The notes under the pieces were generated by a model that worked only from the letters and a program-made list of their open reading frames with translations, did no database searches and was not told the DNA's origin. From contig CAIWCD010000003.1 of the NCBI GenBank assembly GCA_903911145.1, positions 642 to 64,641 of the forward strand: a stretch of 64,000 nt of DNA. Direction: 5' to 3'. This document shows, one piece after another, positions 4,937 to 51,556 of the stretch. The translations under genes and the position numbers were made by a program. This DNA comes from an uncultured delta proteobacterium (lineage in GTDB: Bacteria; Myxococcota; Myxococcia; Myxococcales; 40CM-4-68-19). Positions within the stretch are counted from its first letter, which is position 1, and each line of letters starts with the position of its first letter.

Positions 4937-4991
4937 GGAGGTTAGAGATACTCCGGAGAATATCCAGACAGACCGGACGAAGGAGGTTCGG

Positions 4992-8899: not shown

Positions 8900-9146
8900 G
8901 AGGAACGTAACGGGAACGTAATCGATGGGCGTGAGGACGTTTCCGACCCGGTACAAAGGCGCGCCTGACAGGAGTCGAACCTGTGGCCCGCGGCTTCGAA
9001 GGCGGCTGCTCTATTGGCTGGGCTCGGGAATATCTCAGAGCAGGAAGGCCGCGTCGGACGCGGGCTCTCGCACCGCAGAGTATCTGGCGAGAAGTTGGCC
9101 GCCTGGGTCCCGGATATGTCGGGAACGTAAGAGGAACGTAATCGAA
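8900..9146. repeat. repeat unit D (long form) with tRNA-Arg 3' fragment at 8958-9014
   Basis: Same structure as units A and B. ORFs 8859..9200 and 8925..9443 lie entirely within the repeat and are spurious. Confidence 0.8.
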
Positions 9147-9196
9147 GGGGTTGGACGGACTCCGGATAAACTCGGAGGCAGCCAAAGTGACTCGCT

Positions 9197-11801: not shown

Positions 11802-11931
11802 TCGCGCATCATAGACAGAAGCGATAGGAAAGTGAACGCGCCTTGACGGGAGTCATGCAGTCAAATTTTCGCCGGGAACGTAACGGGAACGTAATCGGTG
11901 GGCTCGCGGGCGTTTCCGACCCGGTGAAAGG

Positions 11932-12005
11932 CGCGCCTGACAGGAGTCGAACCTGTGGCCCGCGGCTTCGAAGGCCGCTGCTCTATCCAGCTGAGCTACA
12001 GGCGC
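11932..12005 (-). tRNA. tRNA-Arg (anticodon TCG), intact
   Basis: Manual cloverleaf fold: 7-bp acceptor GCGCCTG/CAGGCGC, D-stem GCTC/GAGC, anticodon stem GCGGC/GCCGC with loop CTTCGAA (anticodon TCG, C35, A20), T-arm ACAGG-TTCGACT-CCTGT, G73. The 3' flank (11874-11931) carries the gggaacgtaacgggaacgtaatcg motif shared by all repeat units. Confidence 0.9.
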
Positions 12006-22527: not shown

Positions 22528-22665
22528 GGTGGCTCCTCGCGTGAGCTTTCGCCGCGGTTGCGCGCGGAGCTTGGGCCATCCGGGTGGAACGGCGTCAAGC
22601 GCAATGAGCAGGTCTCGCTCCCCCGTTGACGCCTCGGGCGTAGGGGAGGAGTGTTTCCGGTCGCG
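22528..22665. promoter_or_regulatory. divergent intergenic region between giant FG-GAP gene and small-paralog array; presumed divergent promoters
   Basis: A 138-bp non-coding gap separates two divergently oriented first codons. It contains TTGACG on the minus strand and a near-miss sigma-54-like TGGAAC-N..GC on the plus strand. Neither is convincing. Confidence 0.3.
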
Positions 22666-23145
22666 ATGATCGATCTGGATACCAGCGCGTGGGCCCGCAT
22701 CGGCGAAACCACCAACACCGAATACTTTGTGATCGAACCGGGCATCGTCGCGGTGGTGCCCCGCAAGGGCGCCATCGACGTGTTCGAGACGGCGCAGGAG
22801 AACGTCAACTTCGTCAATGAGCACGGCCGCCGCGAAGGTCGCCCGGTGGTGATGGTCGTCTTCTTTGATCGGCTTGCGGCGCAGGACAGCTCTGCCCGCA
22901 AGGTCTACAGCGCTGGCCCGGATCCAACCGCCGTCTGTGGAGGCGCGATGCTCGGAGGCGGCCTGCTCGGCCGCGCGGTCGCGAGTGTCTTCCTCGCCAT
23001 CGTCAAGCCCAAGGTCGTGTTCCGGATGTTCGGGGCCTACGATGAAGCGCTCGCGTGGGCGCGATCTCTTCACGCCGCCCAGAGGCCGACGTCCAACCCG
23101 CCCAGCGCGGTCCCCACTCATGATCAAGATCGGCGGCGCGCATGA
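22666..23145 (+). CDS. small paralog A1 of unrecognised ~145-aa family (possibly STAS/SpoIIAA-like fold)
   Basis: MIDLDTSAWARIGETTNTEYFVIEPGIVAVVPRKGAIDVFETAQENVNFVNEHGRREGRPVVMVVFFDRLAAQDSSARKVYSAGPDPTAVCGGAMLGGGLLGRAVASVFLAIVKPKVVFRMFGAYDEALAWARSL. The start context cgcgATGATCG is shared by all copies. The stop overlaps the next start (ATGA). Confidence 0.7.
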   Translation: MIDLDTSAWARIGETTNTEYFVIEPGIVAVVPRKGAIDVFETAQENVNFVNEHGRREGRPVVMVVFFDRLAAQDSSARKVYSAGPDPTAVCGGAMLGGGLLGRAVASVFLAIVKPKVVFRMFGAYDEALAWARSLHAAQRPTSNPPSAVPTHDQDRRRA

Positions 23146-23582
23146 TCGTCGCCGACACCAGCGGCTGGAAGTTCATTGGCGACACGGCCAACGCGAAGCT
23201 CTTCGAGGTGGAGCCCCGGATCGTCGCCGTCGACCCGCGCATCGGCGCGCATGACACAGTCGCGACCGCGACGACGAACCTGGAAGTTGGCTCGCGATAC
23301 CTCGCAAGCTGCGGCGGCGGCATCGTGCTCGTCTACTTCGACCAGCTCGCAGGCCAGGAGTGGGCGGCCCGGCGGGTCTACCGACGCTACGACCCAGCGG
23401 TCTGCTTCGGCCTGGGCCTGATCGGCGGAACCCCTCTCGCCCGCGCGATGATGTCGTTCTTCCTCGGCCTTGCACGCGTCCCGAATCTTCCCACCAAGGT
23501 GTTCGGGAGCGCAGAGGAGGCCGTGCAGTGGGCCCGCGCCAGCATCGGAGCACGCAGCGTGCGCGCGGCGGCGGCCTCGTAG
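23142..23582 (+). CDS. small paralog B1 (subtype B) of same family
   Basis: MIVADTSGWKFIGDTANAKLFEVEPRIVAVDPRIGAHDTVATATTNLEVGSRYLASCGGGIVLVYFDQLAGQEWAARRVYRRYDPAVCFGLGLIGGTPLARAMMSFFLGLARVPNLPTKVFGSAEEAVQWARA. Confidence 0.7.
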   Translation: MIVADTSGWKFIGDTANAKLFEVEPRIVAVDPRIGAHDTVATATTNLEVGSRYLASCGGGIVLVYFDQLAGQEWAARRVYRRYDPAVCFGLGLIGGTPLARAMMSFFLGLARVPNLPTKVFGSAEEAVQWARASIGARSVRAAAAS

Positions 23583-23641
23583 ACCGGACGAGGCGCCTGG
23601 GTTGACGGCTCGTTCGCGAGGGAGGAGTCTCGTCACTCACG

Positions 23642-24088
23642 ATGATCGTTCCGGACACCAGCGGATGGACGCGCGTCGGCGAAACCTCCAACGTCGATTA
23701 CTTCTCCATCGAGCCGGGGCTCCTCGCGATGGTGCCCCACCAGGGAGGCATCGACGGGCGAGAGACGGCGCAGGCCAACTCTCGCTTCGTCAATGAGTAT
23801 GGCCGCCGCGCTGGTCGGCCCATCGTCCTCGTCTCCTACTTTGATGGGACTGCGTCGCTCGATAGCGCAGCCCGCAAGGTCTACAACGACGAGGCAGACC
23901 CCACCAACGTCTGCGGAGCCGCGCTGATCGGCGGCAGCATGCTCGGCCGGGCGATCGCGAACGTCTTTCTCGCCCTCGTCAAGCCGAAGGGCATGGTGTT
24001 TCGCGTGTTCGGGAACTCCAGCGAGGCGCTCGCCTGGGCGCGAAGGCTCTACGCCGCCCAGCATCCCGACGAGCGTGCGTCCGCTTGA
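23642..24088 (+). CDS. small paralog A2
   Basis: MIVPDTSGWTRVGETSNVDYFSIEPGLLAMVPHQGGIDGRETAQANSRFVNEYGRRAGRPIVLVSYFDGTASLDSAARKVYNDEADPTNVCGAALIGGSMLGRAIANVFLALVKPKGMVFRVFGNSSEALAWARRL. The upstream leader is gggaggagtctcgtcactcacgATGATCG. Confidence 0.7.
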   Translation: MIVPDTSGWTRVGETSNVDYFSIEPGLLAMVPHQGGIDGRETAQANSRFVNEYGRRAGRPIVLVSYFDGTASLDSAARKVYNDEADPTNVCGAALIGGSMLGRAIANVFLALVKPKGMVFRVFGNSSEALAWARRLYAAQHPDERASA

Positions 24089-24177
24089 CGTCCGTTGCGA
24101 TGGGGCGCACTCGCGGCGCGGAAGCTCTGGCTGCGCTGGTTGACGCCACATTCGGGAGCGCGGATTCTCCAATCACG

Positions 24178-24609
24178 ATGATCGAGCCCGACATCAGTGG
24201 ATGGACTCGCGTCGGCGCGACCTCCAACGCGGACTACTTCACCGTCGAGCCAGGGATCCTCGCGCTCGTTCCGCACAAGGGCGCCGTGGACGTGCGCGCG
24301 ACCGCGCTCGACAATGCGAACGTCATCAACGACTACGGCCGCCGCGCCGGTCGACCCGTGGCCGTGATTGCCTTCTTTGATCGAATTGGCTCGCTCGATA
24401 GCGCGGCACGCAGGACCTACAGCGAAGAGGCGGATCCAACGACTGTCTGCGCAGTGGCGATGGTCGGCGGCGCCCTGCTCGGCCGCGCGATGGCGAGCGT
24501 ATTCCTCGCCATCGTCAGGCCGCCGGGCCTGCAGTTCCGATTGTTCGGGACCTATGACGAAGCAGTCGCCTGGGGTCGAACGCTCGTCGCAGAACACGGG
24601 GCCGGTTGA
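24178..24609 (+). CDS. small paralog A3
   Basis: MIEPDISGWTRVGATSNADYFTVEPGILALVPHKGAVDVRATALDNANVINDYGRRAGRPVAVIAFFDRIGSLDSAARRTYSEEADPTTVCAVAMVGGALLGRAMASVFLAIVRPPGLQFRLFGTYDEAVAWGRTL. The start was moved to the internal ATG at 24178, matching the other copies. Confidence 0.65.
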   Translation: MIEPDISGWTRVGATSNADYFTVEPGILALVPHKGAVDVRATALDNANVINDYGRRAGRPVAVIAFFDRIGSLDSAARRTYSEEADPTTVCAVAMVGGALLGRAMASVFLAIVRPPGLQFRLFGTYDEAVAWGRTLVAEHGAG

Positions 24610-24645
24610 CCCGTCGATCGCACGGAAGGAGGCTGCTCAATCACG

Positions 24646-24968
24646 ATGATCGACCTGGACACCAGCGGATGGCCGCGGGTCGGCCCGTCGTCGTCGTCGC
24701 CTTCTTCGACCGGACCGCTTCAGGCGATAGCGCTGCCCGCAAGGTCTACAACACCGAGGCGGATCCAACGACCGTGTGCGCAGCCGCGCTGCTGGGCGGA
24801 AGCATGCTCGGCCGCGCGGTCGCAAACGTCTTCCTGGCCATCGTCAAGCCCACGGGAATTCAGTTCCGCGTCTTCGGGGAGTACGACGAGGCACTTGCCT
24901 GGGCGCGAAAGATCTATCTCTCGCAGGGACCGGTCTCGCGCCCGCCGCGCGCTGTCGTTCACCCGTGA
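24646..24968 (+). pseudogene. small paralog A4, disrupted (internal deletion of ~40 codons plus frameshift)
   Basis: It starts MIDLDTSGWPRVG, then shifts frame. The conserved C-terminal half (RPVVVVAFFDRTASGDSAARKVYNTEADPTTVCAAALLGGSMLGRAVANVFLAIVKPTGIQFRVFGEYDEALAWARKI) is read in the frame of ORF 24606. Confidence 0.5.
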
Positions 24969-24986
24969 TCAGGATCGGCGACGCGG

Positions 24987-25427
24987 ATGATCGTTCCTGA
25001 AACCACCGGCTGGAAATTCCTCGTCGAGACGGCCAACGCCAGGCTGTTCGAACCCGAGCCCCGGATCGTCGCGGTCGAGCCGCACCGTGGCGCGCAGGAC
25101 ACGGTTGTGACGGCGACGGCAAATCTGGAAGCGGGCTCACGCCACCTCGCGAGCTGCGGCGGCGGAATCGTGCTCGTCTACTTCGATCTGCTCACGGGCC
25201 AGGAGTGGGGCGCCCGGCGCGTCTACCGCTGCACGGACGCGTCGATCTGCTTCGGGCTGGCGCTGATCGGCGGCACTCCGCTCGCACGCGCGATGATGTC
25301 GTTCTTCCTCGGCCTCGCCCGCGACACGAAGCTTCCAACCAAGGTGTTCGGGAACACGGAGGACGCAGTGAAGTGGGGCCGCGCACTGATCGAGGCGCGC
25401 AGCCAGATGGCAACTGCGTCCACGTAG
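24987..25427 (+). CDS. small paralog B2 (subtype B)
   Basis: MIVPETTGWKFLVETANARLFEPEPRIVAVEPHRGAQDTVVTATANLEAGSRHLASCGGGIVLVYFDLLTGQEWGARRVYRCTDASICFGLALIGGTPLARAMMSFFLGLARDTKLPTKVFGNTEDAVKWGRA. It is about 85% identical to B1. Confidence 0.7.
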   Translation: MIVPETTGWKFLVETANARLFEPEPRIVAVEPHRGAQDTVVTATANLEAGSRHLASCGGGIVLVYFDLLTGQEWGARRVYRCTDASICFGLALIGGTPLARAMMSFFLGLARDTKLPTKVFGNTEDAVKWGRALIEARSQMATAST

Positions 25428-37440: not shown

Positions 37441-40400
37441 ATGACATCGAGCCAGGACACCGAGGGAGCCTCTGCGGCCGACGACAACCGCGCAGCCAGG
37501 CGGCCGCGGATGGTCGCTCTCACGCGCAGCGCGATTGTCCTTCTATCGCTTGTCACATTGGCGGGATGCAATGGCTGCGGCAAGAACCGCCTCGCCAATC
37601 TTCCCGCGCCGGTGATCCTCGCGTGCACGCCGGAGAGAGGCGTGGTTGGAACGGTGGTCACCTGCACGGGCAACTATCTCCTCAACCCGATCGCGGTGAC
37701 GTTCAATGGGGTATCAGCAACGCAGTTTTCCGGAGACGCGCAAGGGATCCAGTTCACTGCAACGGTCCCCGTCAGCGCAACCACCGGACTCATTCATCTG
37801 ACGACAGATCACGGCACCGCAGACTCCCCTGCTCCTTTTGTAGTCATCGGCCCCCCAGCTCAGTTGGCTTTCGTCCAGCAACCGTCGGATGCCGGCTCCG
37901 GGGTCCCATTCAACCCCGCCGTATCGGTCGCGGTTGAAGATGATGCTGGATATATCGTTCCAAATGCCACCAATGAAATCTCCCTCACGTCGAACGCCGG
38001 GACGCTGAGCCAGGCGGGGATGGACGGGGGAACCGTCGATGGCGGCGTGACGACGTTTAATGCCCTCGCGCTCAACGCGATCGCGGACGGCGGATATATC
38101 CTCACCGCGACGTCGCCCAGCGGGAACATTGCACCGGCAAAGAGCGCGCCCTTCTCAATCGATACAGGCCCGGCTTATCAACTCGTCTTCGTGCAACAAC
38201 CCACAGACCTCCGCTCGGGAGACCCCTTTTCGCCAACCGTCAGCGTTGCGGTCGTCGACAGCGGCCGCAATATCGTTCCAACCGGGACCATCCAGATCAG
38301 CCTGGGCCTGTCACCGAATACGGGGCTGTTGGCGCAGACCAACGGCCAGTCACCAGTCATCGTCAATACGCTCTCGGGGGTCGCGACATTTACGGGAGTC
38401 ACGGCGACCGCCATCGCGAATAGCGGATATACGCTGACGGCAACAGCGGTCGGCACGACCTTGCTCGAAGCGACCAGCCAGCCGTTCGCGATTGCGCCCG
38501 GAGAGCCGACCCAACTCTTCTTTTCCGGGCCGCCCTCCGATACCCAGTCGGGCCATGGAATGGTGCCCATCGTCGTTGTCAGCATCGAAGATTCGGCTGG
38601 CAATATCGTACCGACAAGCAACACCATTACATTAACCCCCGAGCCACATTTCCTCGGCGGAACTGTTCTGCCGAGCCTCAACAACGTCGAAGCTCCGGTC
38701 AACAACAGCGGCATCGCGAGCTTTCCGGGATTAACGCTGGCGGGGACGGTCGGGCAGTACACATTGATTGCAACGAGCGGGCCCCTGACAGGAACAAGCA
38801 CGCCGTTCGCCATCACGGCGGGAGACGCAGCTCAGTTCTCCTTCTCTGTTGAGCCCGCCAATTCAGCCTCGGGGCAGGTGGTCGGAGGCCCCGTCACCAT
38901 CGTGGCCGAGGATACGGCAGGAAATCTGGCGACCTCGTTTACCGACAGCGTGACGGTTGCGCTGGCGTCCAACTCGCCGATGGGAACACTCTCAAACACG
39001 TCGGCAACGAGCGTATCTGGACGCGCCACGTTCGACACGCTCTCTCTCGTCGCGCAGCCTGCGAGCAACTACGCCCTCGTGGCCTTCGCCCCCACGAACA
39101 GCGCGATCCCAGAAGCCAATAGCACCACGTTCGCGATCTCCGCCGGAACGGCGACCCAGCTCGTCTTTATCGTGCCGCCGCCGCAATGGCCCAACACCGT
39201 TCAGTCCGGAGTCGCGATCGGCAATCCCGCAGTCGCGGTGCAGTTCGAAGATGCGAGCGGCAATCCTGTCTATTACAACGGCTCGTCGGTCGTCCTCACT
39301 CTGACGAGCGCCGCCGGAACCGCTCAGAGCACCGGCTCGTTGATAACCCCGACGATCGGCTGCGGCGCCTCCTGCTTGTCGGCCGGCGGCGTCGCGACGT
39401 TTAATGGACTCACGGTCTCCGCATTGGCGGGCACCTATACGTTAACGGCGACCGCGATGATCAATGGGAACCCGCTGACCGTCACCTCCATGCAATTCAC
39501 GGTGGTTCCCGGCCTCGCGAGCAAGCTCGCGTTCGCACCGGCAACAACGCTCAACGCGCACTCCGGGATTGCGATGGGGCAACTGGCCGTCAATGTCGAA
39601 GACTTCGCAGGCAACGTCGTCACGACATCAACTGCGGCGGTCACATTAAGCGCCCCCCCTGGCTCAATCTCGGGTGCTTCCGCGTCGGCAACCAGTGGCG
39701 TCGCAAGATTGAATCCGACATTAACCGGGTCGGCGAGCGCGTCGCCCTACACCTTAATCGCCGCCAGTTCGGGACTGACTTCGGCGACGCGACAGGTGAA
39801 TCTCTCGTATGGCAATGCAAGCAGGTTGGCCATTATCTCCACGACCCCGATCAGCGCGCAGTCAGGCTTGTCGATGCCCACGGTTACTGTGGCAGTGGAG
39901 GATTCGGCCAACAATATCGTCAGCTCGCCGAGTTATCAGATCTCGCTCGCCGTCTCTGGCGCGATTGCCTTTGCTGGCGGCGCGGCGCAGGCCACCGACA
40001 ACAGCGGCACCGCATCGTTTAATCCGACGCTGACGGGCCTCGTCTCGCTCTCCCCCTTTACGCTGACCGCCTCGAGCAGCGCGACCAATCCGTCACTGAC
40101 ACCAGCGACCGCGCAGATTAACCTGAGCGCAGGAGCGCCGCTCCAGCTCGCGTTCGCGGAGGCAACAACGCTCAACGCGCGCTCAGGGATTGCGATGGGG
40201 CCACTGGCCGTCAATGTCGAAGACTCCGCAGGCAACGTCGTCACGACGTCATCTGCGGCGATCACATTAAGCGCACCCCCTGGCTCAGTCTCGAGCGCTT
40301 CCGCGTCAGCAACCAGTGGCGTCGCAACGTTGAATCCGACATTAACCGGATCGGCGAGCGCATCGCCCTATACCTTAATCGCCGCGAGCTCGGGACTCAC

Positions 40401-43400
40401 TTCGGCCACGCGGCAGGTGAATCTCTCGTATGGCAATGCAAGCAAGTTGGCCATTACCTCCACGACCCCGATCAGCGCGCAGTCAGGCCTGTCGATGCCC
40501 GCGGTTAATGTGGCAGTGGAGGATTCGGCCAACAATATCGTCAGCTCGCCGAGTTATCAGATCTCGCTTGCCGTCTCTGGGGCGACTGCATTCACGGGCG
40601 GAGACATATCGGGAACCGACAGCCACGGAATCGCCACCTTTCTTACACCGACCCTGACCGGCCTGGTTGCCAACTCCCCCTTTACGCTGACCGCTTCGAG
40701 CAGCGCGACCAATCCGTCACTGACACCAGCGACCGCGCAGATTAACCTGAGCGCAGGAACGCCGAGCCAGCTCGCCTTTGCACCGGCGACGATGCTCAGC
40801 GAGCACTCTGGCATTGCAATGGCCCAGGTGAAGGTCGATGTCGAGGACTCAGCAGGCAACGTCGTCACGACGTCGTCAGCGGCAATTACATTAAGCGCGA
40901 ACGCTGGCGCGTTGACGGGCACTTCGGCGTCAGCAACGAATGGCGTCGCGTCGTTGAATCCGACATTAACCGGGTCGGCGAGCGCGTCGCCCTATACGCT
41001 GACTGCCGCAAGCTCGGGCCTCACGTCGGCGACAAGGCAGGTGACTCTCTCGTATGGCAATGCAAGCAAGTTGGCCATTACCTCCTCGACCCCGATCAGC
41101 GCGCAGTCAGGCCTGCCGATGCCCGCGGTGACCGTGGCGGTGGAGGACTCTGCCAACAATATCGTCAGCTCGCCGAGTTATCAGATCTCGCTCGCCGTCT
41201 CTGGCGCGATTGCCTTTGCTGGTGGCGCGGCGCAGGCGACCGACAACAGCGGCACCGCATCGTTTAATCCGACGCTGACGGGCCTCGTCACGCTCTCCCC
41301 CTTTACGCTGACCGCCACGAGCAGCGCGACCAACCCGTCACTGACACCAGCGACCGCGCAGATTAACCTGAGCGCAGGAACGCCGAGCCAACTCGGAGTG
41401 ACCATCCAGCCCGCGACGCCAACGGCCGGAGTTGCCTTCACCGTCACGGTCGCCGTCGAAGACGCCAGCGGAAACGTCGTGACCAACAGTCCTCCCGCGG
41501 TCACGATCATGCTTGGCCAGAACGGGGGAGCGGGAATTCTCTCTGGAACAGGGAGTCCGTCAGTCAATGCCGGTATCACGACCTTTGCAAATGTCATCCT
41601 CGACAGATCCGGCTGCGGGTACTCCATCAATGCAGCGACCGCCTCCCCTCTATTAAGCGGCACATCTCCACTCTTCGACGTGGCCCCCGGTCCGCTCGCG
41701 ACCAACGGAACGACGGGAGTGCTCACGCAGGGCTCGAGCGGCGATTACACCTGCGCTGTCGCAAACGGCGGCGCCTGGTGCTGGGGCGACAACAGCCAGG
41801 GCCAACTCGGCAACAACACCACGGTCTCCTGCTCTCTCCCTGTTCACGTCGTCGGCCTGCCAGCCGGCGTTCAATCGATTGCCGCGGGATATGAGCATAC
41901 CTGCGCGGTCGCGAACGGGGACGTGTTCTGCTGGGGCGCCGGAATCAGCGGCGGCCTCGGGAATAGCTCCTTCACCGGCAGCAACGTTGCCGTCCCCGTA
42001 TCGGGCATTGCGGGCGGTGCCTCTTCCGTGTCAGCGGGCGGCGCGGGCAATTCCTCAACGTGCGCGATCATCAACGGCGGAGTGCAATGCTGGGGCGCCT
42101 TCGACGACGGCGGCACCGCCTCGGCACACTCCGGATATATCGAAGCCGACGCGCTCGTTCCGCAAGGTATCGCCGGGCTTGGCAGCGGAGTCCAGGCAAT
42201 CGCCGTCGGAGGAACCCACTCCTGCGCGTTAATCAATGGAGGGGTTGAATGCTGGGGTGACAACACCTACGACGCACTCGGCAGCAACAACGACGCTGCC
42301 AACGGCTCTGCCTGGAGCAGCTCCACTCCCGTGCCCGTCTATGGTCTCAGCGCCGGCGTACAAGCGATCACTTCTGGCGCCGACCAGTCGTGCGCCCTCG
42401 TGAATGGCGGCGTGCAGTGCTGGGGATATAACGCTGACGGAGAGCTGGGAGATAACTTCACGACGCCTTCGCTCATTCCGGTGCCGGTCGGCGGACTCTC
42501 CGGCGGCGTGCAGGCAATCGCGGCCGGCGGACACCAGACCTGCGCGCTCATCAACGGCGGCGTTCAATGCTGGGGAAGCAGTGCCAGCGGCCAATTAGGG
42601 ACCGGCGCGATCCTGAGTGTCTGCGGCATGGATATCCATCCCTGCTCGCTCGTGCCCGTTTCCGTTCCCGGCATGACCTCCGGCGTGCAGGCAATCAGTG
42701 GCGGGGATAGTTCGGTCTGCGCGCTCGTCAATGATGGCGTTCAGTGCTGGGGCGATAATTCGTTCGGGGAACTGGGTAATCACTCAGACGCAGGCAGTCC
42801 GACGCCAGTGCAAGCCCAATCGATCACGCGCGGGATCGCTGGTATGTCGTTGGGAAGCAAGGGGACGTGCGCGATGGTCAATGGCGGCGTGAAGTGCTGG
42901 GGCTATGGCGCCGACGGAGAGCTCGGAAATGGAGCAGTCGCGGGCAGTGCAACGGCGGTGCAGGTTCAGGGGCTCGCCAGCGGAGTCCAAAGCATTGTCA
43001 GCAATCTGGACCACACCTGCGCGCTGGTGGGCGGCGGGGTCTGGTGCTGGGGCGGGAACAAGTATGGCAATACCATCGTCGGGGAAACGGCGCCGATTGA
43101 CGCAGGTATGAGCGACGTCCCGCACCCGATTCCGGGCCTCGGCAGCGGAGTTCAAGCAATCGCAACTGGGGCCTACGATAGCTGTGCCATCGTGAACGGT
43201 GCGATTGATTGCTGGGGATACAACAGCGGATATGGCCTCCTCGGAACAGGCGTCTCTGGGACAATCGTAGGCTCCTCATCGCCTGCCCTGATCAACGGAT
43301 TGGACGCGGGCGCTCAGGCTGTCGCAGTCGGTGGCTTTCAGGCATGTGCGCTCGTCAACGGCGGCGTCGATTGCTGGGGCGGAAACGCGTCAGGTCAGCT

Positions 43401-44004
43401 CGGATATAATTCGCCGAGCTATGCCTCGAGCACGCCCCACCCGGTCGCCGGTCTCGATGCAGGGGTCCAGGCGATCGCCACCGAAGGGGAGACCAGTTGC
43501 GCGCTCGCGAACGGCGGCGTCTACTGCTGGGGCAGCAACATATACGGTCAGCTGGGGAATAATTCGATCTATGTCAATCCCTTCGATGGTGGGTCGACAT
43601 ATCCCGGCAACTACAATTTGAATGTGCCCGCCCCGTCGCAGGTCTATCCGGCAGATGCTGGTGTCTCGGCGATTGCCGCGGGCGTGGCATTCGCCTGCGC
43701 GCTCATCAATGGCGGCGTGCAGTGCTGGGGCGAAAACGAATCGGGTGAATTGGGGATCCCACTCGACGCTGGTGTCGCGAATTGCAGCGGATCGCCGTGC
43801 AGCCCAGTGCCGGTCAGCGTGACCAATCTCGGACCCGGCGCTGGCGTGCAGGCGATCTATGCGGGCAGCGCGCATGCCTGCGCGCTGGTGAATGGCCAGC
43901 TCTTCTGCTGGGGTGCGAATCAGTCGAACGAGCTCGGCAACAACGGCGCAACAAACAACGGCTATAGCGCTATTCCGGTGCCGGTGAATGCGCTCACCTA
44001 TTAA
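37441..44004 (+). CDS. giant surface (lipo)protein (~2187 aa): IPT/TIG + tandem Ig-like repeats + C-terminal 7-bladed RCC1-repeat beta-propeller
   Basis: A signal/lipobox LVTLAGC is present. Repeated ~100-aa beta domains include three near-identical 207-aa copies. The C-terminus carries repeated CAL(V/I)NGGVxCWGxNxxGQLG RCC1 motifs. An alternative start lies at 37510. Confidence 0.9.
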   Translation: MTSSQDTEGASAADDNRAARRPRMVALTRSAIVLLSLVTLAGCNGCGKNRLANLPAPVILACTPERGVVGTVVTCTGNYLLNPIAVTFNGVSATQFSGDAQGIQFTATVPVSATTGLIHLTTDHGTADSPAPFVVIGPPAQLAFVQQPSDAGSGVPFNPAVSVAVEDDAGYIVPNATNEISLTSNAGTLSQAGMDGGTVDGGVTTFNALALNAIADGGYILTATSPSGNIAPAKSAPFSIDTGPAYQLVFVQQPTDLRSGDPFSPTVSVAVVDSGRNIVPTGTIQISLGLSPNTGLLAQTNGQSPVIVNTLSGVATFTGVTATAIANSGYTLTATAVGTTLLEATSQPFAIAPGEPTQLFFSGPPSDTQSGHGMVPIVVVSIEDSAGNIVPTSNTITLTPEPHFLGGTVLPSLNNVEAPVNNSGIASFPGLTLAGTVGQYTLIATSGPLTGTSTPFAITAGDAAQFSFSVEPANSASGQVVGGPVTIVAEDTAGNLATSFTDSVTVALASNSPMGTLSNTSATSVSGRATFDTLSLVAQPASNYALVAFAPTNSAIPEANSTTFAISAGTATQLVFIVPPPQWPNTVQSGVAIGNPAVAVQFEDASGNPVYYNGSSVVLTLTSAAGTAQSTGSLITPTIGCGASCLSAGGVATFNGLTVSALAGTYTLTATAMINGNPLTVTSMQFTVVPGLASKLAFAPATTLNAHSGIAMGQLAVNVEDFAGNVVTTSTAAVTLSAPPGSISGASASATSGVARLNPTLTGSASASPYTLIAASSGLTSATRQVNLSYGNASRLAIISTTPISAQSGLSMPTVTVAVEDSANNIVSSPSYQISLAVSGAIAFAGGAAQATDNSGTASFNPTLTGLVSLSPFTLTASSSATNPSLTPATAQINLSAGAPLQLAFAEATTLNARSGIAMGPLAVNVEDSAGNVVTTSSAAITLSAPPGSVSSASASATSGVATLNPTLTGSASASPYTLIAASSGLTSATRQVNLSYGNASKLAITSTTPISAQSGLSMPAVNVAVEDSANNIVSSPSYQISLAVSGATAFTGGDISGTDSHGIATFLTPTLTGLVANSPFTLTASSSATNPSLTPATAQINLSAGTPSQLAFAPATMLSEHSGIAMAQVKVDVEDSAGNVVTTSSAAITLSANAGALTGTSASATNGVASLNPTLTGSASASPYTLTAASSGLTSATRQVTLSYGNASKLAITSSTPISAQSGLPMPAVTVAVEDSANNIVSSPSYQISLAVSGAIAFAGGAAQATDNSGTASFNPTLTGLVTLSPFTLTATSSATNPSLTPATAQINLSAGTPSQLGVTIQPATPTAGVAFTVTVAVEDASGNVVTNSPPAVTIMLGQNGGAGILSGTGSPSVNAGITTFANVILDRSGCGYSINAATASPLLSGTSPLFDVAPGPLATNGTTGVLTQGSSGDYTCAVANGGAWCWGDNSQGQLGNNTTVSCSLPVHVVGLPAGVQSIAAGYEHTCAVANGDVFCWGAGISGGLGNSSFTGSNVAVPVSGIAGGASSVSAGGAGNSSTCAIINGGVQCWGAFDDGGTASAHSGYIEADALVPQGIAGLGSGVQAIAVGGTHSCALINGGVECWGDNTYDALGSNNDAANGSAWSSSTPVPVYGLSAGVQAITSGADQSCALVNGGVQCWGYNADGELGDNFTTPSLIPVPVGGLSGGVQAIAAGGHQTCALINGGVQCWGSSASGQLGTGAILSVCGMDIHPCSLVPVSVPGMTSGVQAISGGDSSVCALVNDGVQCWGDNSFGELGNHSDAGSPTPVQAQSITRGIAGMSLGSKGTCAMVNGGVKCWGYGADGELGNGAVAGSATAVQVQGLASGVQSIVSNLDHTCALVGGGVWCWGGNKYGNTIVGETAPIDAGMSDVPHPIPGLGSGVQAIATGAYDSCAIVNGAIDCWGYNSGYGLLGTGVSGTIVGSSSPALINGLDAGAQAVAVGGFQACALVNGGVDCWGGNASGQLGYNSPSYASSTPHPVAGLDAGVQAIATEGETSCALANGGVYCWGSNIYGQLGNNSIYVNPFDGGSTYPGNYNLNVPAPSQVYPADAGVSAIAAGVAFACALINGGVQCWGENESGELGIPLDAGVANCSGSPCSPVPVSVTNLGPGAGVQAIYAGSAHACALVNGQLFCWGANQSNELGNNGATNNGYSAIPVPVNALTY
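39520..41385. repeat. three tandem near-identical 621-bp repeats inside the RCC1 giant gene
   Basis: The period is 621 bp (starts at about 39520, 40141 and 40762). Identity is above 90%. Each copy encodes one double Ig-like module (PSLTPATAQINLSAG...QISLAVSGA). Confidence 0.85.
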
Positions 44005-44080
44005 CCGCGCCGGATCCCAATACAACACGATCAAGAGCGGCGTTGGCGTGGCTCCAACTCCATTGACGAGGCGAACCACC

Positions 44081-47000
44081 ATGCGTGATGCATTCGAACT
44101 GCCCGTATTGAACGCTGCACCATCAATGCGGTGCATCCACTTCGCGCCCGCCGCAATCGCCGCCGCGCTGATTTCCGCGCTCGCGGGCTGCCACGGCCCT
44201 GGAGCAATCAACGGGGAGCCACCGACGATCAGCAGCGTCACCCCCGCAAGCGGCCTCACTGGCGCCGCCGTGACGATCGCGGGCGCACATCTGGACAGCG
44301 CGACGGTTGTATTTGGTGCAACCCCCGCGGTGATTAACGCGGATACCAGCGCCCAGATCACCACGAACGTTCCGGTCGGCGCTGCGCCCGGTCCCGAGCT
44401 CATCACGATAACGACGCCGCACGGGTCAGCGACCGCGTCATTCACGGTGATCGCGCAGCCCGCGCCCATGACCATCGCCCTCCATTCCGGCGACGGCCAG
44501 ACCGGTCTGGTTGGTATGCCGTTGAACTCGCCGCTCAGCGTCCTGGTGACCGATTCGCAGCAGCACGGGATGAGCGGAGTGAGCGTTGCGTGGGCCACCG
44601 CCGCGGGAGGGAGCAGCGACGGCGACAGCGGCGCGAGCGTCTCGCAATCGACGAGCGTGACCGGCGCGGATGGTATCGCGTCCATATCAGCGACGCTCGG
44701 CCCCCGCGGCGGAACCAACGAGTTCACGGCGACGATCAGCGGCGCGACCGGCTCTCCGGTCCGCTTCTCCGCGCGGGCCGCGGTCGGGATGACGCTCGTA
44801 TCCGGCAATGCGCAGACGGGTGTCGTCGGCAATCCGCTCTCTGCGCCGCTCAAGGTGCTCGTCGTTGATGACAACCAGCTTGGCGTCGCGGGAATCGCCG
44901 TGAACTGGGCGACGACCGGCGGAACCTTTGGCGCCTCGAGCAGCACCGCAGCAAGCATTTCGGACGCAAATGGATTTGCAACTCCTCCGTCGCTCGCGTC
45001 GCTCGGTATGTCCGGAGGTATCGACTCATATACGGCGTCATTCACCGATTCACCGACGTTATCGCCCATCACGTTCACTGCGCAGGCCGCCGCCGCGCTC
45101 GCGATCAATGCGGGGAATGGGCAGGTTGGAATCGTCGGAGCGCCCCTGGCGCAACCGCTCAGCGTCTTCATCAGCGATGGCAATGCAAATGGAATCTCCG
45201 GGATTCAAGTCAATTGGACCGCTGCGGGCGGCGGCCTCGGCCTTCCCGGCTCCTCGAGCGCTTCCGCGAGCAGCGTCAGCGATATCAACGGAATTGCTTC
45301 AACTCCTGCGATCCTCGGAGCCATCGCGACCACCGATACCTTCACGGCGACCGTCGATGGCCTCAGCGGGTCGCCCGCGATCTTCACCGCGAGCGCTGCT
45401 GGCGCGGTCCGGATGAGCAGCGGCGACCAGCAGACCGGCGTCGCCGGGCAGGCGCTCGCGAATCTTCTCGCCGTTCAGGTGGTCGATAGCAACGATGCCG
45501 GAATATCCGGCATTGCCGTCAACTGGGCGATTGGCGCAGCCGACGCGGGGGCCGCAGGATTGGGCGACACCACGGGCGCCATCGATCCCACGCCGAGCGT
45601 GACGAACTACGATGGGATTGCCTCAGTCGCAGCGACACTGGGCGCACGCGGCGGTCCGAACTACTTCACCGCGAGCGTTGCAGGATTAACCAGCTCGCCC
45701 GTTGTCTTTAATGCCGAGGCCGCGTCTGGAGTCTCGCTGATCTCCGGCAATGCACAGACAGGCTGGGCCGGGGAACCGCTGGCCAATCCGCTCGTGGCGC
45801 AGGCGGTCGATAACAACGACGCAGGGGTCGCGGGGATTGTCGTGAACTGGCTCGTCGCGGACGCAGGCGATCAAACGGCCACTGTCGATTCAATCACGAA
45901 TACAACCAGCGTGACGACGGCAGGTGATGGCACGACGTCGATCAATCCGACGCTCGGCGCGGTGGGGGGCGCGAATCTCTATATCGCCATGATTCCCGGC
46001 CTCGCTTCGTCGGTGCGCTTCTCCGCACAGGCTGCGACAGCGATCATCGCGGACGACGGCGGCGCGCAGACCGCCATCTCCGGCGCGCCGCTTGCTCAAG
46101 CGCTCGTCGTGCGCGTGGTCGATAACCTCGATGCAGGCGTTGCGGGGATTCCGATCAACTGGTCGACGAGCGGAAACAAGTTCGGCATCGCCATTACTCC
46201 CGCGGCCAACACCACCGATTCCACCGGAACAGCGATAGCGCAGGCCACGCTCGGCGCCGGCGGCGGCACGGATACCTTCACGGCCACGGTCGCAACGCAG
46301 CCCAATCCGGCAGTCACGTTCGGCGCGCTCGCGGCCGGCGCGATCATGATCAGTCCAATCGATGGCGGTAATGCGCAGAACGCGGATGCAGGCGCGCAAC
46401 TGCCGCGGCCCCTCGTGGCACTGGTCACGGACGGAACGGTATTGAGCGATGGCGGATATATCCCTGTATCCGGAATCACCGTGAATTGGACGGCGACCGG
46501 AGGCGGCCCCGGCGTCGCTGTCAATCCCGCGACGGTGGTCACTGGCGCAGATGGCCTCGCGCAGACGACCGCGACGCTCGGCGCCACCGGCGGAACCAAT
46601 ACGTTCAAGGCCTCGCTCGCCGGTATACCCGGCGTCGCTTCATATACAGCCACCGCGAACGGCGGAACCTGTCCCGCATCGGCGACACCGACGATCAACC
46701 AGTTCACGCCAACCGACGGCGGCGTGGGCACGGTCGTGACGATCCAGGGCAATAACCTCTGCTCGACGACAGGGGTCTTCTTCTCCAACAACGCCGCCGC
46801 GGTCTTCACTCCAACAGGCTCCCCGACCGCGCTGGTGGCCGTTCTCCCGGCGCAGGCCGTCACCGGTCCAATCAAGGTTGTCACCACCGGCGGAACCGTG
46901 ATCTCCGCCAACCCCTTCACCGTGATTGCCGTGCCGACCATCAGCAGCGTGGCTCCAGTCAACGGCGCCGGCGTCGGCGTGACCGTCACCATCAAGGGAA

Positions 47001-50000
47001 CAAACCTGACCGGCACCAGCGCCGTTTCGTTTAATGGCGCTGCCGCGACGATCCAATCGGTGTCGGCCACGCAGATCGTCACGACGGTGCCCGCCGGTGC
47101 AACCACGGGACCGATCCAGGTCACGACGCCGGGAGGAGTCGCGACGTCGGGCAGATATACGATTCTCCCTTCGCCGACGTTAACCAGCTTCTCCCCTGCG
47201 GGCGGAGCGGGCGTTGGCGCACCGATTACACTGGTCGGAACCAACCTAATCGGAGCCACGTCGCTCCTGTTTAATGGCGGCACCCTGCTCGCTCCAGTCA
47301 GCGCAGTCTTCCTCGGGGCCACCGTCACGGGCGCCATTCCGGCTGGAGCAGTGACCGGTCCTGTCGGCGTGGTGACTCCAGGAGGCACGGCCTATACCAG
47401 CCTGCCCTTCACGATTCTGGCAGCGCCGTCGATTGCGTCGATATCACCGAGCAGCGCCTATGCCGGGACCGGCGCGCTCGTCACCATCAGCGGCTCCCAG
47501 CTTGCGAATGCCACTTCGCTCGCGTTCAATGGTACGGCCGCGCTCATTGAAAGCAATACCTCGGGCCTGATTACAACGACAGTACCGCCCGGCGCAACAA
47601 CAGGTCCCGTCACCGTCGCTACGCCAGGAGGAATTGCCAGCGCCGCCTTTACCGTTCTGACGGTCGGTGCGCCCGCGCCAGTCGGCCCGGCTCCCCTGGT
47701 GATTACGCGGCAGGCGCTGGCGCACGTCGGTGCAGTCGATCGAATGGTCGCGGGCCCCGATATCATCGCCGCCGGAGGCATGCACCAGCGCAATATCTAC
47801 CTCGGGCAGGTGAACTCCAAAGATGCCTGGGCTGACAATCTGCAGGTCGTCACCCTCGATGAGAGCGGCAATCTCCTCGCGGATCGGGTCTATCCGGACA
47901 GCACGCTGCCGATGAATGGAGCCGGCCAGCGCAGCATCGCGGGCCTCGCGCTCGACCCGGCGAAAGAGCGGCTCTATCTGGCCCTGCACGAATATGTTGC
48001 CGTGAATCAATCCCTCTTATCGGTCTGGGCGCTCGATGGTGGCGCGCCGACAGGAGCACCCGCGAGTTATGCGACGGGCAGTTGTTATAAGGCGACGGGA
48101 ACGACGCCGATCTCGATCGCGCTCAATCCAACGCTGCCGATTCTCTATATCGCCTGCAGCAACGGCCCGACGGTCTATGCGGTCGCGTTGAACGCAGCCG
48201 GCGATCCGGCCGGAGATGCGGGAACGTTCCTCGTGGGAGACGCCGGCCTCTCCGACGTGCAGGTCAGCCACGATGGCGCGCATCTCTATCTCGGAACGAA
48301 CAGTGATCAACTGGAGATCGTCGATCTCGATCCGCACAGCGGAATTCCAACGTCTGGTTTGCCGCGGATCTATCTTGCCGGCCCGGATCCACTGACCCAG
48401 ACCGTGGGTCCATTGCGATTTGAATTGGGCGGACACGCGCTCTATCGCGAGCACCAACCGCTCACGCTCGGCAGCAGCGCCACTCTCGAGGTTCCTCCGC
48501 CATCGTGGCCGCTGGAGGTCTGGCCGCTCAACGCAGCGGGAAACCCTGGCCAGCAGACGTGGAGCACGCCGCTGCCGCAGTTCACGGGCAGCGCGTTTGC
48601 CGCCTCTCCCGACGGTGGATATCTCCTGCTCGCCGCCGATCAATATGCGGTTGATCCATTCAACGGAAATCGTTTCTACGAGGGATATGCTCCCTGGCTC
48701 TATGCGACCGATAGCAGCGGAGCTCCCAATGCAACTGGAACCATCTATGCGACGAGCGGCGATAGCCGGCCCCTGCTGGCAACGATCGCTTCCGATGGCC
48801 AATCGGTGCTGCTCGTCGACCAGACGGCACCCGCGGGGAATCTCTCCTCGAATCTCTGGCTACGCACCACAGTCACTGCTGCGCGGACCAATGCCGACGC
48901 GGGCCTGAATACCGTTCCCTATTCGCTCTACGGTTCGGGGGTGACGGGCGTGCTCACCACCGATGGCGGCACGCCGTCCGCGTGGTTCCCGCTCGATCCG
49001 CTGCTCGCCGGCCGCAATGGGCAACTGCTGGTGACGCTCACGTTTGGTCCGATCACGACCGTGGCCAACAATCACGCACCAACCGCGCTCGGTCCGCTCT
49101 CCGCGACCATCGAAGTTGCGCAGGGGGATATCTCGAATCTGACGACCATCGCGTCGTTGCACGAGACAGTGCTCGGCGACACCATCGATCTCATGCTGCC
49201 TGGATATGAAGAGTGGCAGCCTGGAATCAACGGCCCCATCGAGCTCTTGAGCACGCATATCCGGCGCGTCTATCTGAATACCGCGGAGGCCGCCGTCGCC
49301 GCACTCTCCCCCGCGCTCAAGAACTCCGCGACGCCGAAGCAGTTGATTGTCTCCTGCTCGGGAATGGCCGGCGGGCAGGGAGAAGAGCAGCAACTCCTCG
49401 ACGAGGCGACGACGCTGCAGTTGCTCGGTTGCAATACCGTCGGCGCGAGCAACTGGGGCGCGATCCCATATACGGAACTCAGACAGGTATTGCTCGACGC
49501 CGGACTCCCCGGACGCGGCATGACGATCTTCCGCGGCGTCCCCTACCTCCCCAACTTCGATTATGAATATGGTGCGCCGGGATATACTCCGGACCCGGCG
49601 ACGCTCGTCTCCCAGTGGCTCGACTCGACGGTCTTCGCCGCGAATGGAACGTTACCGATCTTCAGCGGCGAGACGCTGGCGAACGTGGTGGATATCAAGC
49701 TCGCCGACGAGCCGGCCTGGAGCTATCCGGGCGAACTGAATCTGCTTGCCGCGTCTGATGCGGGGTTGGCGTTGTTTCACGCAGCACTCGCGGACGCGGG
49801 CTGGCAACCGGGCGATCTCGTCGCGGGCGCACCCAACAGCCCGACCGGTTGGGCCGAGGTATTGCCGCGCAGCTATCCGGGGCTCGATGCAGGAACCGAG
49901 ACGCGCACGCTCTATCGCGAGACGATGCGTTACTTCCCCGCGGCCGCAACGCGCGCCTATAGCGAGGCCGCGGATATGCTGCAGGCCGCATTTGCCGACG

Positions 50001-51556
50001 CTGGCGCGGATACCAATGCACGCGTCGTCAACATCGACGTCAATTGGGCGACGTCCCCCTGGTATGGCAATCAATCGATTGCCGCGAATCCGCCGACTGC
50101 ATTCGGCCAGTTTGATTGGCTGGAGGTCGGCCGCGACGGCCATTTCACTCCGTGGACGGAGGATTGGGCATTCTTCAATCCGGAGGATTGGACCACGGCC
50201 GCCGATCAACTGCGCTCGGCGGCAATGCTCGCGCCCGCTCCTGGCACCACAAGGCTTCCGCGCAATTTCGGTGGATATATCGTCGGCAATCATCTTCTCT
50301 ATAGTCATCCCGAGGCCGCGAGCTTCAATGCTCTCTCGCTGGTTGCGAAAGGATCCAAGACCGTCGAGCTCTATTCCTTTGGCCCTGGGCAGGTCGATGG
50401 ATTGTCATTCTATGATCAGGGCAACACCTGGTCGGAGGATACCGGCATCTATGGATCGATCGCGCGCGCCACCCGGCGCATCGGCGCGGCCGAGTCGGTG
50501 CTCTATCCGGGCATTCCTGCACGCGGCAAAGTCGCGCTGCAGTTCCACTCCTCCAGCCCGCTCTGGGAGCCGTCGCAGGGACACCTGTACGAATTGGAGT
50601 CGGCGGCACTGCACTACGCGCTGGCGCACGCGGGATATACCGTTGATTACATCGACGACGTGGATATGGAGAGCGGCGCACTCACTGCGCGTGGATATTC
50701 GGCGCTCTATCTGACCGAGCCCGATCTGACGACCAAGGCGCAGTTGGCGATCGTGGATTGGGTCAATGCGGGAGGGACGCTGGCCGTGGTGCTCGCGGGA
50801 GGAATCAACAACGAACTCGACCAACCCAGCGCCATCCTCGATCCCGTGCTGGGCTTGAGCCGGACGACGATTCGAAGTTTCCGCAGTCCGAGCACCGCCG
50901 CGAACATCTTCGCGCGCCAACCCGGCAGCATCGATTACTCGGTCTATCAAGGAACGCTCGCGACGCTCCAGCCGACGGGCGTCGATTCCGCCGCGTTCGG
51001 CGATGCTGGCGTAACGATTGTTGGGACATATCTGCCGCTCGATGGATATCTCAATGGTGGCGCGACGACCGTGGCGACCATTCCAGACGGGGGAGTCCAC
51101 AGCATGCCGGGCCCCGCGATCGCCGTGAACAGCTATGGCAGCGGAACCGCCGTCACCTATGGATTCTATCCGGGCCAGGAGTATCGAATGGCCTCCGATA
51201 ACAGCGGGTATCCCGATCAGCTGCCGCAGCATTACAATCCGAGCCTGCGCCAGCTCGCTGTCGGCGCGGCCCGCCTCGCCAACACTCCCCAGCCGGTGAT
51301 TCTCGATCACGCGGTGGTTGAGGCCGACCTGCTCCAATCCCCGGCGGGTCTGGCGGTGGCGCTCCTCAATTGGACCGACCAATATATCCCGCTGCTCCAG
51401 GTCACCATTCCCAATGCCTGTTACAGCGGGACCCCGTGCACCATCAGCAGCGTCACCTCGTCGGAACATCCCGCGCCGCTCGACTTCGCCCAGGCGGGGA
51501 CGCAGCTGACCGTGACGTTGCCGATCGACAAGGTCGATGTGCTCATCATCAAATGA
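44081..51556 (+). CDS. giant surface protein (~2491 aa): IPT/TIG domains, ~9 Ig-like repeats, 5 more IPT domains, large C-terminal region with beta-propeller-like and GH42-middle-domain-like segments
   Basis: The start is at the ATG at 44081 (MRDAFELP..., signal ALISALAGC). The Ig-like repeats follow GxPLxxPLxVxVxD...GxxGIxVNW. The C-terminus has ALYLTEPDLTTKAQLAIVDWVNAGGTLAVV. Confidence 0.9.
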   Translation: MRDAFELPVLNAAPSMRCIHFAPAAIAAALISALAGCHGPGAINGEPPTISSVTPASGLTGAAVTIAGAHLDSATVVFGATPAVINADTSAQITTNVPVGAAPGPELITITTPHGSATASFTVIAQPAPMTIALHSGDGQTGLVGMPLNSPLSVLVTDSQQHGMSGVSVAWATAAGGSSDGDSGASVSQSTSVTGADGIASISATLGPRGGTNEFTATISGATGSPVRFSARAAVGMTLVSGNAQTGVVGNPLSAPLKVLVVDDNQLGVAGIAVNWATTGGTFGASSSTAASISDANGFATPPSLASLGMSGGIDSYTASFTDSPTLSPITFTAQAAAALAINAGNGQVGIVGAPLAQPLSVFISDGNANGISGIQVNWTAAGGGLGLPGSSSASASSVSDINGIASTPAILGAIATTDTFTATVDGLSGSPAIFTASAAGAVRMSSGDQQTGVAGQALANLLAVQVVDSNDAGISGIAVNWAIGAADAGAAGLGDTTGAIDPTPSVTNYDGIASVAATLGARGGPNYFTASVAGLTSSPVVFNAEAASGVSLISGNAQTGWAGEPLANPLVAQAVDNNDAGVAGIVVNWLVADAGDQTATVDSITNTTSVTTAGDGTTSINPTLGAVGGANLYIAMIPGLASSVRFSAQAATAIIADDGGAQTAISGAPLAQALVVRVVDNLDAGVAGIPINWSTSGNKFGIAITPAANTTDSTGTAIAQATLGAGGGTDTFTATVATQPNPAVTFGALAAGAIMISPIDGGNAQNADAGAQLPRPLVALVTDGTVLSDGGYIPVSGITVNWTATGGGPGVAVNPATVVTGADGLAQTTATLGATGGTNTFKASLAGIPGVASYTATANGGTCPASATPTINQFTPTDGGVGTVVTIQGNNLCSTTGVFFSNNAAAVFTPTGSPTALVAVLPAQAVTGPIKVVTTGGTVISANPFTVIAVPTISSVAPVNGAGVGVTVTIKGTNLTGTSAVSFNGAAATIQSVSATQIVTTVPAGATTGPIQVTTPGGVATSGRYTILPSPTLTSFSPAGGAGVGAPITLVGTNLIGATSLLFNGGTLLAPVSAVFLGATVTGAIPAGAVTGPVGVVTPGGTAYTSLPFTILAAPSIASISPSSAYAGTGALVTISGSQLANATSLAFNGTAALIESNTSGLITTTVPPGATTGPVTVATPGGIASAAFTVLTVGAPAPVGPAPLVITRQALAHVGAVDRMVAGPDIIAAGGMHQRNIYLGQVNSKDAWADNLQVVTLDESGNLLADRVYPDSTLPMNGAGQRSIAGLALDPAKERLYLALHEYVAVNQSLLSVWALDGGAPTGAPASYATGSCYKATGTTPISIALNPTLPILYIACSNGPTVYAVALNAAGDPAGDAGTFLVGDAGLSDVQVSHDGAHLYLGTNSDQLEIVDLDPHSGIPTSGLPRIYLAGPDPLTQTVGPLRFELGGHALYREHQPLTLGSSATLEVPPPSWPLEVWPLNAAGNPGQQTWSTPLPQFTGSAFAASPDGGYLLLAADQYAVDPFNGNRFYEGYAPWLYATDSSGAPNATGTIYATSGDSRPLLATIASDGQSVLLVDQTAPAGNLSSNLWLRTTVTAARTNADAGLNTVPYSLYGSGVTGVLTTDGGTPSAWFPLDPLLAGRNGQLLVTLTFGPITTVANNHAPTALGPLSATIEVAQGDISNLTTIASLHETVLGDTIDLMLPGYEEWQPGINGPIELLSTHIRRVYLNTAEAAVAALSPALKNSATPKQLIVSCSGMAGGQGEEQQLLDEATTLQLLGCNTVGASNWGAIPYTELRQVLLDAGLPGRGMTIFRGVPYLPNFDYEYGAPGYTPDPATLVSQWLDSTVFAANGTLPIFSGETLANVVDIKLADEPAWSYPGELNLLAASDAGLALFHAALADAGWQPGDLVAGAPNSPTGWAEVLPRSYPGLDAGTETRTLYRETMRYFPAAATRAYSEAADMLQAAFADAGADTNARVVNIDVNWATSPWYGNQSIAANPPTAFGQFDWLEVGRDGHFTPWTEDWAFFNPEDWTTAADQLRSAAMLAPAPGTTRLPRNFGGYIVGNHLLYSHPEAASFNALSLVAKGSKTVELYSFGPGQVDGLSFYDQGNTWSEDTGIYGSIARATRRIGAAESVLYPGIPARGKVALQFHSSSPLWEPSQGHLYELESAALHYALAHAGYTVDYIDDVDMESGALTARGYSALYLTEPDLTTKAQLAIVDWVNAGGTLAVVLAGGINNELDQPSAILDPVLGLSRTTIRSFRSPSTAANIFARQPGSIDYSVYQGTLATLQPTGVDSAAFGDAGVTIVGTYLPLDGYLNGGATTVATIPDGGVHSMPGPAIAVNSYGSGTAVTYGFYPGQEYRMASDNSGYPDQLPQHYNPSLRQLAVGAARLANTPQPVILDHAVVEADLLQSPAGLAVALLNWTDQYIPLLQVTIPNACYSGTPCTISSVTSSEHPAPLDFAQAGTQLTVTLPIDKVDVLIIK

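Follow-up and report, generated by a model that had tools for sequence, protein, structure and literature searches.

Introduction

The closest described concept to the repeat array reported here is that of the Periscope Proteins, which include SasG and Aap with their G5-E repeats, Rib, Sgo_0707 with its SHIRT domains, and CdrA (Whelan et al. 2021, PMC8201768). The screening threshold for these proteins is a repeat unit of more than 50 amino acids (aa) with at least 80% protein identity, and their defining property is variation in repeat number among close relatives, in clusters of at least 90% identity (PMC8201768). A second related group is formed by the fibrillar adhesins and the stalks of the inverse-autotransporter type, such as invasin, intimin, InvD/InvE and Big_1/Invasin_D3 (Monzon et al. 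2021, PMC8286594), and neither survey mentions RCC1 or propeller domains (PMC8201768, PMC8286594). The array lies in the RCC1 giant gene (37441–44004, + strand), a 6564-nucleotide (nt) open reading frame (ORF) encoding 2187 aa according to the ORF list and its translation, within a stretch of 64,000 nt from an uncultured delta proteobacterium (assembly GCA_903911145.1, contig CAIWCD010000003.1); this whole stretch is referred to as the window, and all coordinates are positions in it. A third group comprises the giant RCC1-repeat proteins (COG5184/ATS1-like, PF00415/PF25390) of Myxococcota, Planctomycetota and Gemmatimonadota metagenome genomes, which like the window protein combine an immunoglobulin-like (Ig-like) stalk with a C-terminal RCC1 region; we know of no bacterial RCC1-repeat giant with a known function.

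The array consists of three tandem copies of a unit of two unlike Ig-like domains, A and B. We consider it probable that it reflects an old, lineage-specific triplication of this A–B module in the stalk of the protein, followed by patchy homogenisation of the copies, with the extra units acting as a spacer. As in the Periscope Proteins, similar folded domains are arranged in tandem in a predicted rod-like stalk that would join an anchor to a functional domain at its far end, and as in the G5-E repeats of SasG, the unit is made of two unlike domains such that near-identical domains are never adjacent. The window array differs from the Periscope Proteins in having just three units with 82–88% DNA identity and no length variation on record, in the predicted pair of RCC1 propellers that forms its head, and in its host, an environmental Polyangia-like bacterium; unlike the Gram-positive LPXTG layout, the order is reversed, with an N-terminal lipobox anchor and a C-terminal head. 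With the fibrillar adhesins the protein shares a one-chain stalk of many Ig-like (E-set) domains carrying a terminal domain, although RCC1/WD40_RLD are its only non-stalk domains and no known adhesive domain family is represented; unlike the inverse autotransporters, it has neither a beta-barrel translocator nor a LysM domain.

Anatomy of the repeat array

A scan of the gene against its own sequence, equivalent to a dot-plot, covered all offsets of 3–3500 nt and scored the best 300-nt identity for each. The score reaches 0.95 at 1245 nt, 0.93 at 621 nt and 0.89 at 624 nt, and does not exceed 0.55 at any other offset. Repeat finding and self-blastn (E=0) delimit the array as 39518–41395, whereas Tandem Repeats Finder, with a longest period of 500, reported nothing for it. 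Three tandem in-frame copies within the RCC1 giant gene had been described by an earlier, sequence-only reading of the window, and offset scan, repeat finding and self-blastn all recover them; the off-diagonal with 621-bp spacing that it expected in a dot-plot is present in the scan as the 621, 624 and 1245-nt signals.

Copy 1 (c1; 39517–40137, +; 621 nt, 207 codons) encodes domains A1 and B1, copy 2 (c2; 40138–40761, +; 624 nt, 208 codons) encodes A2 and B2, and copy 3 (c3; 40762–41382, +; 621 nt) encodes A3 and B3, after which 13 nt of a further unit start, with a PSQL motif, close the array at 41395. The three units are all in frame inside the ORF, and the earlier view of the array as an in-frame domain expansion stands, in that whole stalk domains have been duplicated in an RCC1-headed giant protein. 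The period is not exactly 621 bp as had been claimed, but 621/624/621 with an extra codon in copy 2.

Whole-unit nucleotide identities are 88.4% (c1–c2), 87.0% (c1–c3) and 82.4% (c2–c3), so the figure of more than 90% given earlier is correct for sub-segments but not for whole units. The corresponding protein identities are 85.5, 85.5 and 81.2%, and with units of 207/208/207 aa at 81.2–85.5% protein identity the array passes the size and identity threshold used in screening for Periscope Proteins. Any two copies differ at 72–109 positions, and exact in-register runs are 60–71 nt, the longest being 71 nt.

A fourth, diverged copy had been thought to follow the third, but offsets of 1866–1872 nt are at a background of ~0.3, and a blastn search with the unit gives no match past 41395. 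The segment in question is a single diverged Ig-like domain, D12 (41383–41676, +; aa 1315–1412), with 22–36% protein identity to A and B and thus no closer to them than are the five upstream stalk domains (24–39%); by this measure the supposed fourth copy is just a generic Ig-like stalk domain.

Mosaic divergence and age of the copies

Divergence at synonymous sites (Ks) and the ratio of nonsynonymous to synonymous divergence (Ka/Ks) were determined by segment and by pair using the Nei-Gojobori method. In domain A, Ks is 0.20 between c1 and c2 and 0.57–0.69 from these to c3, and in a patch of domain B (unit codons 146–182) it is 0.07 between c1 and c3 and 0.86–0.97 to c2; in unit codons 101–145 and 183–207 it is 0.05–0.20 in all pairs. 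The divergent patch of copy 2 (40573–40686, +) spans the 37 codons 146–182 plus the one extra codon, with Ks of 0.86–0.97. Sites at which c1 and c2 agree and c3 is different occupy the first ~330 nt of the unit, those at which c1 and c3 agree and c2 is different occupy columns ~430–560, and all three copies are near-identical around the A/B junction and towards the end of the unit. This clustering is strong, with 58 runs of informative sites versus 84 ± 5 expected and 0 of 20000 permutations giving as few (p<5e-5). Such mosaic divergence is evidence of past sequence exchange among the copies; homologous recombination inside the array is thus real on an evolutionary time scale.

For a yardstick of age, the window was compared with the nearest relative genome found, JGI 3300030020 contig Ga0311344_10000041, whose sigma-54 activator is 90% identical; Ks between the two genomes is 0.36–0.65 in the four shared flanking genes. 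Since Ks in the un-homogenised parts of the repeat equals or exceeds this range, those parts are at least as old as a species-level split. This agrees with a triplication that is old, dating back to the divergence from the nearest sampled relative or earlier, and does not agree with the recent expansion that had been proposed. All copies are under purifying selection, as Ka/Ks is 0.24–0.39 over the whole unit (0.15–0.8 by segment).

The favoured history begins with the old triplication of the two-domain A–B module, after which homologous exchange among the copies, by gene conversion or unequal crossing-over, would have re-homogenised tracts of ~75 to 330 nt in varying pairings. Such exchange would account for the mosaic, in which A1 is close to A2 and the B1 patch to the B3 patch, with agreement among all three copies around the A/B junction and where the unit ends. 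The same recombination may occasionally have altered copy number, and any such change would stay in frame because 621, 624 and 1245 are all multiples of three. Starting from two ancestral units, one unequal crossover would, by our own reasoning, fail to give the arrangement Aα-Bβ, Aα'-Bγ, Aδ-Bβ', and this origin was set aside.

The copy-2 patch has no donor elsewhere in the window by blastn. A diversity-generating or positively selected loop was rejected as its cause in view of a Ka/Ks of ~0.3 and saturating Ks; from these values, the patch is an old divergence and not the product of directed diversification.

The near-identical segments could in principle be explained in another way, with the triplication old and recombinationally inert and the segments held by nucleotide or RNA selection or by strong codon constraint. 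The most conserved segments do coincide in all three copies (unit codons 101–145 and 183–207), as local constraint predicts, but constraint leaves unexplained the conflicting sister relationships, in which c1 groups with c2 in domain A and with c3 in the B patch. Conservation there extends to synonymous sites, with Ka/Ks remaining at 0.15–0.8, and no Rfam family, terminator-like or promoter-like signal was found in the array. We regard an inert array as highly improbable.

Several points weigh against the history of triplication and patchy homogenisation as we have set it out. The Ks estimates for short segments are based on just 23–34 synonymous sites, and part of the mosaic could have arisen if the copy-2 patch was brought in from an unsampled paralog or allele instead of by conversion among the three copies. 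The window comes from a short-read metagenome assembly, and both copy number and the threading of segments are taken from it. The surface localisation of the protein is based on a lipobox read by eye.

Reliability of the assembled array

Exact look-ups of the 2187-aa product, of a version of it with a later start and of the 2522-aa version of the downstream gene gave no match, and those of neighbouring proteins show that the same DNA is public as ENA ERZ18667900 BUCK21-1_SAMEA6872997_METAG-scaffold_47 (159 kb); no publication was found for the sample and run accessions. This scaffold contains a 100-N gap in copy 2, and as a consequence the annotation of the giant gene is reduced there to a fragment of 1162 aa, with its 5' half uncalled (loci L067, L069 and L070). 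The Logan contigs of run ERR4194711 (k=31) stop at 39738 and resume at 41361, both positions being in stretches shared by the copies. The gap and these contig breaks are what would be seen if the copy number or the mosaic were an assembly artefact, with short reads of the repeat or of co-existing strains collapsed or mis-threaded.

The scaffold_47 flanks, which end at window position 40568 and resume at 40514, overlap by the 55 nt of the gap site (40514–40568) and match the window at 100%; the gap site itself sits in a 60-nt run that is identical between copies 1 and 2. Four contigs, the longest of 162.6 kb, are recorded at NCBI and ENA without the gap and encode a 100% identical 2187-aa protein (P0123). 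Mis-threading may permute segments but would not create three distinct A and three distinct B variants, and given 72–109 differences between copies, ordinary paired reads should place uniquely. An artefact therefore seems to us improbable, and the three-unit structure is plausible because the copies differ at this many sites and share no exact run longer than 71 nt.

Fold of the two-domain unit and architecture of the giant protein

Each 621-nt unit encodes a pair of unlike Ig-like domains, with 41–48% identity between A and B and 78–93% between domains of the same type. An AlphaFold model of c1, made from a 30-row alignment, has a pLDDT (predicted local distance difference test) of 92.3 and a pTM (predicted template modelling score) of 0.80, and is all-beta with two beta-sandwich domains; a long linker between them is absent from the model, which would give the unit the folded domains and short linkers of the Periscope Proteins. 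Foldseek searches of the PDB with this model match the tandem Ig-like domains of the S-layer protein SbsC, Yersinia InvE/InvD and intimin D0-D1, with further matches to the C-terminal domains of GH2 enzymes, cadherins and titin. The matches to InvE, InvD and intimin D0-D1, together with a weak match to Invasin_D3, are points of likeness to the fibrillar adhesins. The A–B pairing fits the argument that unlike neighbours avoid misfolding, as discussed for unlike-domain pairing in the Periscope survey (PMC8201768), but such pairing is not a rule of the family, as several homologs have near-identical single-domain periods.

A Shine-Dalgarno-like GAGGG motif is located 6–7 nt 5' of the ATG of the giant gene. 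The N-terminal signal region (37441–37569, +; translation ...AIVLLSLVTLAGCNGCG) ends in the lipobox L40-A41-G42-C43, recognised by eye in the translated N-terminus ...LLSLVTLAGC with Cys43, and is a predicted lipid anchor. A hidden Markov model (HMM) built from the repeat halves identifies twelve Ig-like domains of ~100–110 residues each before the RCC1 part, and the order is an N-terminal domain, D1–D5, A1B1A2B2A3B3, D12 and then RCC1. Domains D1–D5 (37855–39516, +; aa 139–692), placed by the A/B domain HMM search and the identity matrix, are diverged, with mutual identity of 31–46%. The stalk is only weakly matched in Pfam, Invasin_D3 scoring 22.2 bits, below the curated cut-off of 33, and Glyco_hydro2_C5 reaching a summed 56.2 bits versus a cut-off of 32 without any single passing stretch. 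NCBIfam has no family for the giant protein or for the 207-aa unit.

The C-terminal RCC1-like region (41713–44001, +) contains 14 blades with a CWG motif in each, and its repeats score above the Pfam gathering thresholds: WD40_RLD PF25390 at 405 bits (cut-off 150), RCC1 PF00415 at 181 bits (cut-off 21.7) and RCC1_2 PF13540 at 98.6 bits (cut-off 22). Fourteen blades are enough for two seven-bladed propellers, which we infer to form the distal head. The layout of the giant protein is thus an anchor, an Ig-like rod of about 13 domains, and a propeller head, and on the basis of its sequence features the protein is probably a large cell-envelope lipoprotein, with its exposure at the surface a likely consequence of this layout. 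Compared with a single unit, the triplicated array makes the stalk longer by four Ig-like domains, and from the architecture the role of the two extra units may be that of a spacer that sets stalk length.

Homologs and variation in stalk length

Whole-protein searches of 5.8 billion proteins, searches with the unit, and searches of GTDB genomes and JGI metagenomes give best matches of 36–40% identity, mostly in the RCC1 part only. The search with the 207-aa unit finds no relative above 36% identity, and in the best RCC1 homolog, P0002, whose locus is not syntenic with the window, no A/B orthology by position was found; because of these two results the triplication is, as far as the searches reach, lineage-specific. 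Giants of the same architecture include P0001, P0002, P0062 and P0094, and many of this class have near-identical internal repeats. The window protein differs from them in that the closest are just 37–40% identical, stalk domains number from 7 to 24, and A/B orthology by position is absent.

Of the 120 homologs returned by the whole-protein search, internal repeats with 80% identity or more over 100 aa are present in 45, and repeats with 60% or more in 104. Their periods are ~104–107, 208–212 and 306–321 aa and larger, corresponding to one, two and three or more Ig-like domains. With 45 of 120 homologs having similar internal repeats, the array is, from these comparisons, typical of and ordinary for the class of RCC1/Ig-like giant proteins. 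Stalk domains number 7, 9, 10 and 24 in RCC1-headed homologs, versus 12 in the window protein, so that stalk length is labile over long times; internal repeats need not mean rapid length change, however, because a subfamily of 2148–2165 aa is constant in length across 60–96% identity.

The sequence-only reading had taken the array for a recent expansion and a hot spot of RecA-dependent copy-number change, with a stalk whose length varies across strains or cells in the manner of a Periscope Protein. The units, at more than 50 aa and 81–86% protein identity, pass the screening threshold for that class (PMC8201768), every unit offset is divisible by three, past exchange among the copies is evident, and the number of stalk domains varies widely among RCC1-headed homologs. 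The minimum for RecA-mediated exchange is roughly 25–30 nt in E. coli, and the exact in-register runs of 60–71 nt exceed it. On the other hand, a Ks of 0.6–0.97 in the un-homogenised parts is not recent, being no smaller than the divergence from another species, and a DNA identity of 82–88% is low for frequent recombination. The most extreme variation in the Periscope survey goes with the highest repeat identity (PMC8201768); the array has exact runs of up to 71 nt and signs of past exchange, but its 82–88% overall is far below the near-100% seen in the most variable known cases. No variant allele is on record either: the four contig records all encode the identical 2187-aa product, and the 90% cluster searched for strain or species alleles holds only this allele and the gap artefact of it. 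The well-sampled homolog subfamily stays at 2148–2165 aa across 60–96% identity despite its internal repeats. A recent expansion acting as such a hot spot appears unlikely to us on balance.

The mosaic does support, historically, a reading of the array as a substrate for recombination. At 12–18% divergence it would nevertheless be a much weaker substrate than those of the classical variable-length proteins and would be placed at the quiet end of the survey. Strain-to-strain length variation of the stalk is plausible. We offer only tentatively the fuller proposal that the array is a working Periscope-type length module in which gene conversion maintains competence for recombination, with strains carrying 1 to 5+ units in an N-terminally lipid-anchored fibril topped by a double RCC1-propeller head.

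More extreme internal repeats than those of the window gene are found in the distant homologs P0003, P0006, P0071 and P0057, in which, for example, a 107-aa domain occurs 15 or more times, or a two-domain unit of 211 aa two to three times, with 99–100% protein identity. These would be better candidates for variable-length stalks than the window gene.

Genomic neighbourhood

The RCC1 gene is followed by a second giant gene, the TIG/Big_1 gene (43988–51556, +; 2491/2522 aa; public start 44081), which overlaps or abuts it and has its own internal repeat with 942-nt spacing and 71% identity. No terminator-like site was found between the two genes, and from their arrangement they are probably co-transcribed. 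A third, the FG-GAP/Big_1 giant gene (15139–23127, −; 2662 aa), lies 14 kb upstream of the RCC1 gene and encodes ~20 FG-GAP repeats and 9 Big_1 domains. Together the three make up a cluster of predicted giant envelope proteins.

Synteny with Ga0311344_10000041 (locus L072) is confined to an 8-kb block at window ~25.9–34.3 kb, containing a hypothetical 530-aa gene, Band_7, the sigma-54 activator and a TPR gene. At the syntenic site, none of the giant genes (RCC1, TIG and FG-GAP) is present, and their places are taken by unrelated genes: GH18, MatE and ACR_tran on one side and ADH and a DksA-like gene on the other; because the nearest relative lacks them at this site, the giant genes sit in variable regions of the genome. 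Among named genomes, the sigma-54 activator has its best matches in Polyangia and Myxococcales metagenome-assembled genomes, at 66–67% identity; on this basis the organism probably belongs to Myxococcota, as an uncultured member.

Two further sets of repeats are present in the window. Upstream of the FG-GAP/Big_1 gene, at ~22625–25427, are direct repeats of several hundred nt that are 73–80% identical; in the public gene calls they coincide with six small paralogous genes (99–169 aa) in tandem, three of them with a weak DUF7793 match. A dispersed element of ~210–270 nt is present in three copies (1772–1979, 4702–4960 and 8902–9169) that are 87% identical to each other, and each includes the 3' ~55 nt of the intact tRNA-Arg(TCG) gene at 11930–12005 (−). 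Two of the three are scored by Rfam as partial tRNAs, the elements are flanked by GGAACGTAA(T) motifs, and one of the segments encodes an HI1420-type antitoxin domain. These features suggest att-site duplicates, with three small mobile elements (~3–4 kb each) having integrated one after another at tRNA-Arg.

Implications

Short-read assemblies break at the array, and metagenome annotations of this family of RCC1 giant genes consequently need care. The array offers a clean case of a bacterial giant gene whose internal repeats evolve in concert, and duplication by two-domain units keeps identical Ig-like domains from adjoining one another. If variation in stalk length is true, the Periscope concept would extend to an uncultured, free-living soil or peat myxobacterial lineage, and the RCC1 double propeller would be indicated as a distal ligand-binding head.

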